Shown here: one piece after another, positions 1 through 6,000 of the stretch
Layout: the number at the start of each line of letters is the position of its first letter
Numbering within the stretch: position 1 is the first letter of the stretch
DNA from: a virus
Lineage: Duplodnaviria; Heunggongvirae; Uroviricota; Caudoviricetes
IMG/VR virus record: IMGVR_UViG_2537561715_000005
Length of the DNA stretch: 9,557 nucleotides
Strand: one strand, 5' to 3'
Made by a program: the position numbers

Positions 1-3000
1 CAAACCAGCCTATAAGCCCTTTCTGACCTTCTTCTCCCGGTTTCCAGGCCAGCGTAAAACTGGTATCTCCTGCAGACTTCTGCCCCTGCCCGGTCGCGGT
101 CCAGTCCGCGTCTTCATCATCCAGGTAGTTATCATCGTAGGGTTCTGCCGTCATCTCGCCCGGCGTCAGATCCTTCACCTTAGCCAGTCGCTGCCAGTCA
201 TCGTCTGACAACGGGTTTGCATAAGCATCACCCTTGCCGTTGTAAACCCACAGAGTGGTACCGGCACCTTTTACCGGCTCAAGGGGATTTGGTGTTGCCA
301 TATCGTCCTCACATCTCGTAGGTAATTTTCCACAGGAGATCTGCCGATCCCCACATCATAAACTCATCATCCCGGCGGTAGTCATACCCCTGAAGATTCA
401 TCTTCAGCAGTAATGCACTGAGCCCGGGAACTGCCTCCAGCGCAGGAAGAATTTTTTCTTCCATCCACATATCCAGTGCCGAGTCCGGTTCTTTTGCCCT
501 GAGAAAAACCTCAATATGCAGTGTCGCCTCCCAGGTTCCCTCATCAACGAACTCGTCAGCAGCAGACGCATCTGTCAGGTAAACAGCAACAGCAGGCAGT
601 TCCTGTTCATCAATAAAAACCGGGCGACCGTCAAACCAGCTCACCCTCTCAGAAATATTTTCTTTCAGGGCAGACAGAACTGCCGCCCGTATTTCACGGT
701 GTTTCATACACCCTCCCAGTCATTTTCTTTTCAGCACCAGGCGTAACTGATGCGTCATGGCTTTCATCATCTGCGCCGGTAATTTTTCCCGGTACATCCG
801 GTCCCGTTCACGTTCAAAGGTTTCTGCCAGCGGTCCGGCAGTCGTAATCTTCACCACTTCGATCGGCAGACGGTGGCGTTTCGGCCTCCCTTTGCTGTCC
901 GCGCCGGTGGATGATGATGCCCACGGCATACGCTGCATCACATGCCAGCGTCCGTTAGCCAGCCGGGTGATAAAGGCGTCCGGGATCCGTCTTTTCCCCA
1001 CAATCAGCACACTGCCGCCCCCTTTCAGGGCCGCACGCTGTCCTTTCTTTCTCCGTTTTCTGCGGGAAAGTCGAACGCGGGCCTCCCCCAGTTTGATGGC
1101 GGGCAGGTTGCCGGTATTGATGTAAACCTTTGCGTAAACCTTATCCGGTCGTGCCGGACTTAACCGGATGCGGGCACGGATAAGACGACGGGGAACGGCC
1201 AGCTCCCTGGCAACTGAAGAGGCCGTTTTCGCAATAATGGCCCCCGCCACTCGGTTCAGTGTCGTGGCAGAGGCCCGGGGAACGGCACGGCGATCAATTG
1301 CATCCAGATTTTTCATGGCCTGCGCCAGACCTTTTATTGCCATACTCATTCCTGTTCGACAAAAATCCGGGGTTTACCGTTGTACGTGTCATAACGGGTC
1401 ACCGTCAGTGTGCGCCCCGCAAACACAACAACATCATGACGGGCCGGACGGTACCGGGCTGAAAACACCACCAGTGACAACTGGCTGCCCGAAAGCGCCC
1501 CCATCTCCGCGGACTCTTCCTCCGGCATCACGTCGTACACGACGCCGTTAATCTCCGCCTGTTTGCCCATCACCCGAACGGTCGCCACGTCCATCCGGCA
1601 ACACATTCGCGTAAACAGATCAGACATTGATTTTTACCGCCACAGTGGCGCTGTTTGCAGGGGCATTTTCCCAGGCTACCCCCGCTGCCACCGCACCGTC
1701 TGCAGCCAGCTGCACAACCCCGTCCTTCAGATAAACCACCGCGCCGGACTGAATGTCGTCAGCAGACTGTTTGGGCAGCAGGAACACGCCTTCGGCAAAA
1801 CCGTCACCGGCCTCACCGGCAGGAATATCGGTAATGGCCACGGCCACCATACTGCCGACCACCACCGCAGCACCGCTCAGGATGGTCTGATCTCCGGCAT
1901 TCACCAGTTCAATGGTGGTACCGTCCTGTACAAAATTTTTCGCCATAATGCTGTTTCTCCGGACAGCCCCTGTGGGGCTGTTTTTCAGGCATAAAAAAAG
2001 CCCTTTCGGGCAGTGATTGTGATAACGCGGTTATCAGGCCACCGACGAACGCACCAGCCCGCGCCAGTCAAGTGGTGCCACTCCGGCATCAATACGGATT
2101 TTTGTGGCAATGCCGTCAGTGGTGAAACCTTCCTGCTGATCAATGTATGGCGTGTCCACACCATCCAGCCAGGCCACTTCAATGGTGTCAGTGCCCTGTG
2201 CCGCCGCCAGATACCAGGTTTTCGGGTCTGCCGCATCAAGACGCGCTTCTGCAATCACCTCAGCAAAGTTCTGGATAGGGTTAATGACACCGGCGTTTGC
2301 ATCCGCCCCTTTCACACTGGCCGATTTGATGGTCTGGTTCGCCACCGTCTCCAGTGCCACCGGTACCAGCATAAAGGCCGGACGGATATTCAGGGCACGA
2401 TCGCCTTCTTTCTGCAGGCGCATCATCTGACGGGCCGCATCCAGTCCGGAAACGGAGATCCCCCCGGTGGCAATATTTTTGTGATCGGCATGGAACAGCG
2501 CCTTACCGTCGGACAGTTTCGGGTTATCCGTCAGCACCTTGTAGACCAGGTCACCAATCGTTGCCTTCGCCGCACGCCCCATCTTCATCGGCACGTCCAC
2601 CAGCATATTCAGATCATCATTGATAATGGCCTGGCGGGTGATGGAGAAAATCTCCCCGTAAGTGGCCAGTGCAATGGTCTCCTTGCGATCTGAGGTGGTG
2701 ATGTATTTATACTCCGCCCCCTCACGAACCTGGCGCAGAGAACCAAAACCGCCCATCCCCACGCGATACGCTGTTTTGAAGTCTGACAGGCGTCCCTTAC
2801 GGGTCCACTTCTGGAAGGTTTCTTCTGATTCCTCCCAGCCCTGGATCAGCCCCTTGTTCGACACATCCAGCAGAATATTGCCAAAATCAGAGGTGCTGTG
2901 CGTCAGCGCCAGCCCGACCATCTGCATGGGGTTATAACTGGCCACCCCAATACCGCGCTCCGTCAGTGACATGCGAGCCCATTCACGCAGGGTCATCCCG

Positions 3001-6000
3001 TTATAGGCGTTATCCTTCTCGACATTTTCAAATCCGGCACGGGCCAGCATCGCCTGGCGGATCCCGTCCCCCACAAAATTGCCGTTTCCGGCATAAATAT
3101 GGGCCGGTGTATTTTTGTTGGTCGGCGAGGACTCCTTGCCCATTTCATTCAGCAGACGTTCACGGGCCATTTCCAGCGAACAGTCAGGATCAGCCACGCA
3201 CTGTGCCTGAAGCGTCTGATAGCGACCGCCGAACATGGCAAACAGATCGTTAATGCCTGACATGCGGGCTTTCTGCTCAGCCATAACGCGGGCGCGAATG
3301 GTCGCCTCATCAGACACTGCCGGTACCGGTGATGGTTCTGTTACCGCCGGTGCAGGGATTGTCACTGTGGTATCACGCGGGGCACTGTTGCGTGGCGGAG
3401 TAATCATGTTTCGGATGGATTCCGGCATCTTTTTAAATTCCTCTGTACGTTTTGACTGAATACATGCCATTGCCTCAACAGCGGGTGTCACCTGGTCAGC
3501 AAATCCGTGTGCCAGACATTCGGCACCGGACATCCAGGTTTCATCCGCCAGCATGGCGGCAATTTCATCGGTGGTTTTTCCGGTTTTCTGCGCATAGGCT
3601 GGCAACAGTACCGATTCGACTTTATCCAGCAAATCGGCATAACTGCGCATATCCTCAGCATCCCCGCCACTGAATCCCCATGGCTTATGGATCATCATGA
3701 AGGCATTTTCCGGCATAATGACCGTATCACCGGCCATCGCAATCACAGATGCCATCGAGGCGGCAACGCCATCCACATACACGGTAATGGTCGCCCCCTG
3801 ATTTTTCAGGGCATTAAAAATGGCGATGCCTTCAAAGACATCGCCACCCGGTGAATTGATATGGAGATTAATGTGGGTGATATCACCCAGTGCATTCAGT
3901 TCGCTGACAAACTGCTTCGCGGTAACTCCCCAGAAACCAATCTCGTCATAAATATAAATATCCGCGTCACCCGGCCCCCCAGCTTGCATCCTGAACCAGG
4001 ATTTATTCTTCATGCTGGCTTTCGGTGTCGCGCTGATACTGTCGTTCAGTTCCGGCACTGTTGCCTCCTTTGTCGTTGACGGGGTCAGTATCAAAGACCA
4101 GCCCCAGTCTGCTGTTTTCATCAATTTCAGCCTTGCGGCGACGTTTGACCTCATCCGGATTGCACCCACCGGCACGCACCCAGTCAGATTCTGTCGCTGC
4201 ACCACCCCGGATCTGAATTCTCCAGGCTTCAGCTTCCTTAACCGGGTCGATCCACGGCATCACCGGACCGGAATACGTCGCGTTATATAGCGTTTTCATC
4301 TCCACATCCGCCGGAATTTTCAGCAGACCTGCCGCAACCACCATATTCAGCCATGTCCGGTACACCGGGCGGGTTACCGCGCCAATAAAACAGTCCTGCA
4401 GGATCAGGTAACCATCCGTGGACTCGACCAGCTCCTGCCGCTGGGCGCTGTAGGTGCCGTTATAGTTACGCGCCGCACTGGAAAAACTCAGACGACTGCC
4501 TGCTGCCACTGCACGCAACTGGCCGTTGCGGAAAGTTTCAAGGTTGGGATTGGGACGGTCAGATTTGACCATGCCGATATCCTCGCCCTTGCGCAAATCG
4601 TCATAAATAATACCCGGGGTGATATGGACTTCCCGCTCGGTCTCTTTGATCCCCGGATCTTCATAGTCCTGTCCGTCACCTTTACGGATATACAGTCCCA
4701 GCGCCGCAGCAATACGCGCCGCTGTCAGTTCCGCATCCTCATACTCCTTAAGGGCACTGATCCGCATCAGCACCCCCGATAACATGGATGAGCCTCGCGT
4801 CTGATGCAGACGACGAGTGAACTTCAGGTGGATCATTTTTCCGGCAGCGATTTCTTTCGTATCACTCTGCCGGCCGCTGACCGGATAATTTTTATAAACC
4901 AGATATTTTTTCGGTCTTCCCCACTCATCAAGAAAAACCCCCTGATTCAGTCCGGCGGATTCATCAGTGCGCATGGGAACAAAATCCGGCTCCATCGCCT
5001 CAAGCCAGAATGGCACTCCCGCCGTCCGTTCCAGACCGTTTCCCGCACCACTGACCATCTGCGCAAACACTTCACCATCCCGCAGCCAGGTCCGCAGCAG
5101 TAAACGTTCAAGCACAGGACGGGTATACTGCCCTGTCACATCCGGACTCACGGACCATTCAGCCCACAAACGGCGGATATCCGCAGCCAGCTCAGCCGCC
5201 ATTTCCCCGTTTTTTCGTAATGGCTGAGGCTCCACAATAATTCCCCTGGCACCAATCACCCGCTCTTCCAGCTTGTCAAACACACCAATCACCAGGTCAT
5301 GATTGATATCCAGAAAACGGGCCTGCTCCCGCAGGGAAACCGCACCGTATTTACTGAGCTGATCAGCAGAGCGATTTTCCCGCCGGGCTTTATGTGTCCG
5401 GGTCGGTTTCACCGCCTCATAGGCCATGATTAACGCCCTTGAACGCAGTCTGGCTGCTTTCCACCCGGGGGAAAACACGCCGATCACATCATCAATAATT
5501 GCCATTAAAACCTCGCCAGTTTAAATCCCGGTTTTCCCCGCCTGCGGCTCACCATCGCGGCAAGCCTGCGTTCCCACTCCTGACGTCCGGCGCGGATCTG
5601 AGAAAGGCTTTCCAGCGTCAGTTGCTGCCCGTTGAAGATGACAGACTTTCCCTCCAGTACGGCCATTTCCGCTTCACGGTACCGCTGTATCATTTCTCTG
5701 GCTTCTTCTGTGCTCACAACCAGCCTCCTGATGTTATCCATGGATTATCTTCCGCACGCTCCGTCCGCAGTTTTTTCTTCCGGCGACGGCGTTTTTCTGC
5801 CCCGGCCGTCAGTTCCGGGGATACCGTTTCACCAGAACGCTCCTGCGGGAAGACGAGCCACGTTTCCCGCTGTGCCCAGTCCGGTGCGGAGGGCCAGCGG
5901 ATCTTTTCGTAACCATGCAGAACGGCAAGCGCATCCGCATAAACCAGCAGGTCAAACGCTTCGTTAGCGCCCCTGCCCGGTTTTCGCCATTTTCCGTCAC

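Follow-up and report, generated by a model that had tools for sequence, protein, structure and literature searches.

A protease–scaffold–capsid fusion gene of the Gifsy-2 type in the head module of a Shiga-toxin-type lambdoid prophage

The minus-strand gene at 2034–4058 of a 9,557-nucleotide stretch of viral DNA (hereafter the window, meaning the whole of the sequence that we analysed) encodes a protease, a scaffold-like segment and a major capsid protein as one polypeptide, a kind of gene that has already been described. Its ORF is an intact and ordinary member of the catalogued Gifsy-2-type ‘tripartite capsid gene’ family, whose architecture was reportedly described for Gifsy-2 by Effantin and colleagues in 2010 (Virology 402:355). 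Taking the evidence as a whole, we hold with high confidence that it encodes the head shell of a lambdoid (Shiga-toxin-type) E. coli prophage and belongs to this family.

In a profile search, the NCBIfam model NF045540, named ‘ClpP-like prohead protease/major capsid protein fusion protein’, gave a score of 1003.6 bits, well above its cut-off of 475, and the match spans amino acids 81–721, which correspond to profile positions 2–651 of 652. PHROG 133 also matches the ORF end to end. The identical protein occurs in RefSeq genomes and in phage ASU11, and the 100%-identical E. coli copies in RefSeq bear the name of NF045540; relative to the E. coli proteins of this family (WP_000792357.1; phages ASU11, cdtI and mEp460), nothing substantive differs other than the choice of start. 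Similar DNA is present in 2,070 of 5,426 complete E. coli genomes, with a match over at least 80% of the gene in 2,011 E. coli genomes and an identity of at least 99% in 401 records. The window itself represents the head module of a lambdoid Shiga-toxin phage and shares 99.9% identity with VT1-Sakai (in which the fusion gene is interrupted by IS629), and its terminase, portal, Z and U genes are lambda-family. The features of the gene and its surroundings are collected in Table 1.

Table 1. Features of the fused head gene and its neighbours in the window; residue numbers count from GTG 4058.
Feature	Coordinates	Strand	Remarks
ORF	2034..4205	minus	Stop at 2034; furthest start GTG 4205, 723 aa from there (ORF list)
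Tripartite head gene	2034..4058	minus	674 aa from GTG 4058; 659 aa from RefSeq ATG 4013
ClpP-fold serine protease domain	3393..4004	minus	Residues ~19–222
Catalytic Ser101	3756–3758	minus	
Catalytic His124	3687–3689	minus	
Acidic third residue Glu173	3540–3542	minus	Aligns with ClpP catalytic Asp
Pro/Ala/Thr/Val-rich flexible linker	3318..3389	minus	Residues 224–247; pLDDT <50
Conserved three-helix scaffold-like segment	3135..3308	minus	Residues 251–308
Short disordered loop (ESSPTNKN region)	3087..3110	minus	Residues 317–324; pLDDT <50
Major capsid protein region	2037..3086	minus	Residues 325–674; HK97-fold core from ~384
Shine-Dalgarno-like AAGGAGG	4064..4070	minus	Spaced 5 nt from GTG 4058; lies within the 3′ end of the portal gene
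Lambda-family portal gene	4003..5505	minus	Directly upstream; Pfam Phage_portal_2, E=2.8e-80
Head decoration (cement) gene	1620..1946	minus	Directly downstream; 108 aa; Pfam Phage_cement_2, E=6.6e-19

A preliminary description of this DNA had proposed a single ORF with three domains, and this proposal holds: the ORF is uninterrupted, its frame is open to 4205 and past it, and its translation contains DADIYIYDEIG, ASMAS, MMIHKP and PAPAVTEPSPVPAVSDEATIRARVMAEQKAR. Both of the enzymatic and structural assignments were recovered by Pfam, the ClpP-type protease as CLP_protease (ORF amino acids 95–240, E=1.9e-36) and the capsid domain as Phage_capsid_4 (ORF amino acids 433–720, E=9.4e-56); an N-terminal ClpP-fold domain with catalytic Ser and His and a C-terminal HK97-fold capsid domain are carried by the same uninterrupted ORF. 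Canonical ClpP (peptidase family S14) is a stand-alone subunit of ~200 aa that forms a tetradecameric chamber served by a Clp ATPase and uses a Ser-His-Asp triad, whereas here the domain occupies the first third of a capsid polyprotein of 674 aa and has Ser, His and, at the aligned Asp position, Glu173. ClpP equivalog HMMs fall far short of their thresholds; TIGR00493, for one, gives 61 bits where 308.6 are required. The same is true of S49/SppA models, among them TIGR00706 (27 bits; cut-off 155), and this bears out the contrast that had been drawn with lambda.

In a high-confidence AlphaFold2 model built on 63 diverse sequences (mean pLDDT 87.7), disordered breaks lie near the domain boundaries that had been drawn earlier, and the loop at 3110 matches. 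The region between 3110 and 3470, which had been described as a linker, needs revision: it does hold a disordered Pro/Ala stretch, but it actually comprises the last helices of the protease, a linker of ~25 residues and three helices. Length and sequence of the linker vary among relatives, and in both alignments identity is lowest and gaps are most frequent at residues 224–247. The three helices (residues 251–274, 281–289 and 295–308) are modeled at pLDDT ~86–97, and we propose this segment as the counterpart of the HK97 delta domain, with a putative scaffolding role. A query with the middle segment (nt 2910–3470, including the helices) retrieved only 187 protein clusters, in which the same capsid domain nearly always follows it directly; in some cases no protease precedes it, or the protease is of the S78 type. 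Because there are relatives of ~400–470 aa that consist of the middle segment and capsid domain only, this unit can presumably assemble without a fused protease.

The resemblance to Gifsy-2 that had been suggested extends over the whole protein. An alignment of 669 residues with Gifsy-2 STM1034.3n shows 62% identity, with all three parts in the same order, and this BLASTP alignment crosses the homologous middle segment (some 100–200 residues) unbroken. The gene order is common to both phages (small and large terminase, gpW-like, portal, fusion gene, decoration, tail genes), including the portal gene upstream and the small decoration gene downstream of the fusion. The small downstream protein, to which a place in the mature shell had been given, falls in the decoration/cement family, as expected, matching PHROG 122 ‘head decoration’ with E=4.1e-39 and showing 54% identity to the Gifsy-2 neighbor STM1034, a DUF2190/cement decoration protein; a sequence search of the PDB with it gave no meaningful match. 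Gifsy-2, a Salmonella phage, differs from the E. coli Stx-type lambdoid phage of the window in host, in the sequence of the Pro/Ala-rich linker, in the N-terminal tail and in the annotated start, and the alignment places an 8-residue insertion in Gifsy-2 just past the loop at residues 317–324. Proteins of 1,159 aa that span portal, protease and capsid represent frameshift-generated chimeras at the head locus; we rejected them as a larger fusion, as the frame switches at differing positions.

Other well-known heads divide the same functions differently. In HK97, gp5 fuses a delta-domain scaffold to the capsid protein, the gp4 protease (S78 family) is separate and covalent crosslinks, rather than a decoration protein, stabilize the shell; among relatives of the window protein, there are some with an S78-type protease fused in place of ClpP. 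In lambda, the protease (gpC) is of the S49/SppA type, the scaffold (Nu3) is nested and the capsid protein has a gene of its own, E. The lambda genes C, Nu3, D and E occupy the same place in the genome as the window genes, flanked by the portal gene and the tail genes, and both sets include a trimeric decoration protein that acts as cement, although the decoration protein of the window belongs to the Phage_cement_2 family and S49 models stay below threshold there. Elsewhere, an Rfam search of the window returned zero matches, a search for lambda/mEp213-type cos patterns gave nothing above chance and a promoter and terminator scan of 1500–4400 gave nothing above shuffled expectation.

The start of translation had been left ambiguous among 4205, 4058 and 4013; all three exist, and comparison favors GTG 4058. 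A scan of the whole ORF found AAGGAGG and GTG 4058 to be its sole strong pairing of a Shine-Dalgarno sequence with a start. The arrangement aaaggagg-N5-GTG is kept in phages cdtI and phi458, which have Pro at the codon equivalent to ATG 4013, and among relatives this position is occupied by Pro, Ala, Leu, Val or Ser. Given that relatives retain AAGGAGG-N5-GTG but not ATG 4013, translation most likely begins at GTG 4058, in which case the last 56 nt of the portal gene are shared with the capsid gene. The start annotated in RefSeq, ATG 4013, is probably 15 codons short in this lineage.

That the single ORF might be an artefact, a sequencing error or recent frameshift having joined separate protease/scaffold and capsid genes, deserves consideration, given that older records say only ‘protease/scaffold protein’ or ‘Clp protease’ and that frameshift chimeras, with junctions at differing points, do occur at this locus. 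The comparative data effectively refute it. We aligned the window protein with 62 diverse representatives of 50%-identity clusters, and 57 of these 63 sequences have the ClpP and capsid domains together; the architecture is likewise kept in Gifsy-2 and, at 58% identity, in a Pseudomonas phage, and curated full-length HMMs exist for the fusion. A further large protein search started from this alignment retrieved enterobacterial sequences only, all at 73% identity or more, which brought in no new diversity. The preliminary description had named a frameshift or split gene as what would overturn its reading, and what we find instead is the intact ORF, 100% identical, in many complete and independently finished E. 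coli genomes. Because of this identity and the shared architecture, the sequence comparisons tell us that the fusion is no sequencing artefact.

A fused protease could be catalytically dead and serve as bulk scaffold only, with processing left to a host protease or another phage protease, a reading that gains something from the replacement of the ClpP Asp by Glu in the window protein and in 47 of the 63 aligned sequences. We consider it highly improbable: the third position is acidic in every ClpP-type member of the alignment (Asp in 10 sequences), the catalytic Ser is found in 56 of 58 and the His in 57 of 62, and neither the ORF list nor Pfam reveals a second protease gene in the head module of the window. 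Such retention of Ser and His across very divergent relatives, together with an invariably acidic third residue in the ClpP-type members, indicates selection for catalysis. A different proposal is that an internal in-frame start, similar to that of lambda C/Nu3, adds a protease-less scaffold–capsid product and so cuts the ratio of protease to capsid. The existence of the short relatives with middle segment and capsid domain only speaks for such a product, as does the point that a T=7 shell with protease and capsid at 1:1 would hold several hundred protease domains per procapsid. We nonetheless find it quite improbable, as the scan, which covered the entire ORF, detected neither a convincing nested gene nor any internal start preceded by a good Shine-Dalgarno sequence (the one candidate, ATG 3428, has a 4-nt AGGA spaced 10 nt away), and no promoter-like site lies on the coding strand within the gene. 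The joint claim that the protease works via a Ser-His-Glu triad and that, in addition, either GTG 4058 gives the primary product or an extra scaffold–capsid product is initiated internally seems to us rather unlikely. If true, a start at GTG 4058 or an internal product would mean expression and stoichiometry unlike those of the current RefSeq annotation, and the Glu triad and the readings of start and product would be refinements of a known system rather than a new kind of system.

For the tripartite gene as a single, active polyprotein, both the self-processing and the make-up of the mature shell are deduced from what is published on Gifsy-2 and from the conserved catalytic residues; the processing, cleavage sites, stoichiometry and capsid geometry envisaged here are those carried over from Gifsy-2. 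By analogy with Gifsy-2, HK97 and lambda, copies of the full-length protein would build a T=7 procapsid on the portal, in whose interior the protease and helical parts would serve as a built-in scaffold. The tethered proteases would then remove everything N-terminal of the capsid domain, probably by cleavage within or close to the disordered loop (residues 317–324), which is a candidate maturation cleavage region, or further downstream. The cleaved fragments would exit and the shell would expand as DNA is packaged, with the downstream decoration protein, in the form of trimers, cementing the threefold positions in the role that crosslinks play in HK97.

NCBIfam and PHROG already provide dedicated models for the fused head gene, and more than one-third of complete E. 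coli genomes carry similar DNA; the importance of the present case is slight beyond correct annotation. Such annotation does matter here, in that the label ‘Clp protease’ in many database records masks the major capsid protein of these Stx-type phages. Within the wider family, the unit of middle segment and capsid domain, found with a ClpP-type protease, an S78-type protease or no fused protease, offers a small case of modular exchange among head genes.

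The ORF on the minus strand at 2034-4205 is present in the window together with every peptide motif quoted in the preliminary description, which had read it, from sequence only, as a single tripartite capsid gene of Gifsy-2 type. Pfam places CLP_protease at residues 95-240 (E=1.9e-36) and Phage_capsid_4 at residues 433-720 (E=9.4e-56) of the 723-aa ORF, and a sequence search of the PDB matched its protein to ClpP chains down to E=3.5e-18, bearing out the proposed ClpP/S14 fold. An AlphaFold2 model built on 63 diverse sequences (mean pLDDT 87.7; a shallow alignment gave 35.5) puts the domain boundaries near those first drawn.

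The fusion gene is already known, an ordinary member of a well-populated, catalogued family. Its product matches NCBIfam NF045540, 'ClpP-like prohead protease/major capsid protein fusion protein', end to end (1003.6 bits against a cut-off of 475), scores 224 bits against a cut-off of 120 with the domain model 'head maturation protease, ClpP-related', covers 667 of 668 positions of PHROG 133 and is identical to RefSeq WP_000792357.1, which carries the fusion name. Fusion-gene-like DNA occurs in 2070 of 5426 complete E. coli genomes, numerous complete genomes holding 100%-identical copies of the ORF. The likeness to the Gifsy-2 tripartite capsid gene (Effantin et al. 2010, as cited in other papers) also held: the Gifsy-2 record has a 696-aa homologue at the same position, 62% identical across 669 aligned residues spanning all three parts, and the downstream decoration proteins share 54% identity. 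Both the original observation and its interpretation were correct.

Features of the window and of the fusion protein (residues of modelled segments counted from GTG 4058, 674 aa)
Feature	Position	Strand	Remark
Rz	9020-9487	-
DUF1441 protein	7834-8310	-	small-terminase position
Large terminase	5714-7837	-	gpA-type
Head-tail adaptor	5505-5741	-	gpW-like
Portal	4003-5505	-	lambda-family
Fusion-gene ORF	2034-4205	-	longest extent
Decoration/cement protein	1620-1946	-	108 aa
Head-tail attachment protein	1346-1627	-	Gifsy-2-family
gpZ	720-1349	-
gpU	309-707	-
Disordered N-terminus	residues 1-18		AlphaFold2 model
Alpha/beta domain	residues about 21-222		AlphaFold2 model
Disordered Pro/Ala-rich stretch	residues 224-247		AlphaFold2 model
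Three confident helices	residues 251-274, 281-289, 295-308		AlphaFold2 model
Disordered loop	residues 317-324		AlphaFold2 model
Large domain, long spine helix (483-511) and beta-sheets	residues 325-674		AlphaFold2 model
Ser101	AASMAS		Ser in 56 of the 58 sequences that are ungapped at this position (63-sequence alignment)
His124	MIHKP		His in 57 of 62 (63-sequence alignment)
Glu173, aligned with ClpP catalytic Asp	ADETW		Glu in 47, Asp in 10 (63-sequence alignment)

When the window protein was aligned with 62 sequences, each representing a 50%-identity cluster that contains the middle segment, the capsid domain appeared in 62 of the 63 sequences and the ClpP domain as well in 57; by this comparison the protease-capsid fusion is genuine. 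Conservation at the Ser101, His124 and Glu173 positions argues for an active protease whose third residue is acidic, usually Glu, and the sequences departing from this pattern are those with another N-terminal domain.

Public databases also hold 1159-aa 'portal + ClpP + capsid' proteins (P0270-P0282 among the related proteins), for which the relevant part of the window is the portal/capsid-gene overlap at 4003-4260. Because their frame-switch points differ from entry to entry, we reject a larger natural portal-protease-capsid fusion; each probably arose separately, through a frameshift or a faulty gene call, in the stretch open in both frames. The room for such errors comes from the capsid-gene frame, which has no stop over ~67 codons upstream of GTG 4058, within the portal gene, in cdtI and phi458 too.

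Where translation begins had been left ambiguous among GTG 4058, ATG 4013 and 4205, the last of which has no support. Comparison makes GTG 4058 the probable start: it is the ORF's only start with a strong Shine-Dalgarno sequence (AAGGAGG at 5-nt spacing), and aaaggagg-N5-GTG recurs in cdtI and phi458 (76% DNA-level identity). The RefSeq choice, ATG 4013, is the less likely true start in this particular phage, yet admissible, since the first conserved protein residue is Lys17, directly after Met16 (ATG 4013), and the model is disordered across Met16; against it, the codon is Pro in cdtI and phi458, and the column varies among Met, Leu, Pro, Ala, Val and Ser in 19 homologues.

An HMMER scan of residues 246-432 of the ORF against 1.84 billion representatives (E<=0.001) found the middle segment in only 187 clusters, nearly all of proteins ~640-830 aa long in which it occupies about residues 200-400. 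Eight proteins of ~400-470 aa start with the segment, followed by Phage_capsid_4 and no protease, an HK97-like arrangement; two carry ClpP and the segment without a capsid domain and may be fragments. In a few relatives an S78 (HK97-type) protease replaces ClpP, which agrees with residues 262-720 matching NCBIfam NF045541 below its threshold. This distribution ties the middle segment, in evolutionary terms, to the capsid domain. Being helical and preceded by a variable disordered tether, the segment fits a proposed delta-domain-like role as internal scaffold. Four relatives in alignment A3 (P0163, P0217, P0233 and P0237) keep segment and capsid behind another N-terminal domain (IGVVERAW motif). 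Two aligned sequences match Pfam Peptidase_S78, consistent with NF045541, the second NCBIfam fusion family, and suggesting that the protease module has been swapped.

The window is a run of lambdoid-phage late genes, 99.9% identical in DNA to phage VT1-Sakai and 97-99% to many Stx-converting phages. In VT1-Sakai (AP000400.1, 2534-5802) the fusion gene is broken by IS629, its halves annotated as H0022 ('scaffolding protein') and H0019 ('hypothetical protein'), whereas the window copy is intact, so the window comes from a related Stx-type prophage and not Sakai Sp15 itself.

Several neighbouring features merit mention. Databases disagree on the 93-aa attachment protein, which is a 'DNA breaking-rejoining protein' in RefSeq, a minor tail protein in PHROGs and, in Pfam, a member of the 'Gifsy-2' family, whose description is ATP-binding sugar transporter, although a weak match to head-tail attachment is also given there; its location points to a role in joining head and tail. 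The gpW-like adaptor, 78 aa in the ORF list and 70 aa (213 nt) in RefSeq, has a further ambiguous start, adjoining the 4 nt shared with the terminase gene. Within Rz, in another frame, a 68-aa ORF (9061-9267, minus strand) with a lipoprotein-like N-terminus (…LPLVVSAC…) and Pro-rich body looks like a nested Rz1 spanin gene. Some 700 nt (8311-9019) separate Rz from the small-terminase-like gene; around this gap GC is low (~0.43 at 8001-8500), an unannotated 80-aa ORF lies at 8772-9014 (minus strand), and a G-rich run, ggggcgggcgggcgcgg (about 8497-8513, minus strand), could be near cos. A lambda/mEp213-type cos pattern search did no better than chance.

What is directly established here is which domains the protein has, that its catalytic residues and its single ORF are conserved, and that the locus is syntenic; the course of head assembly is inferred by analogy with Gifsy-2, HK97 and lambda. 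The polyprotein would co-assemble on the portal with protease and scaffold inside, and cleavage, in cis or by adjacent subunits, would fall upstream of the capsid core, the disordered loop at 317-324 being the most obvious exposed candidate site. The fragments would then be released, the shell would expand, and decoration trimers would cement it.
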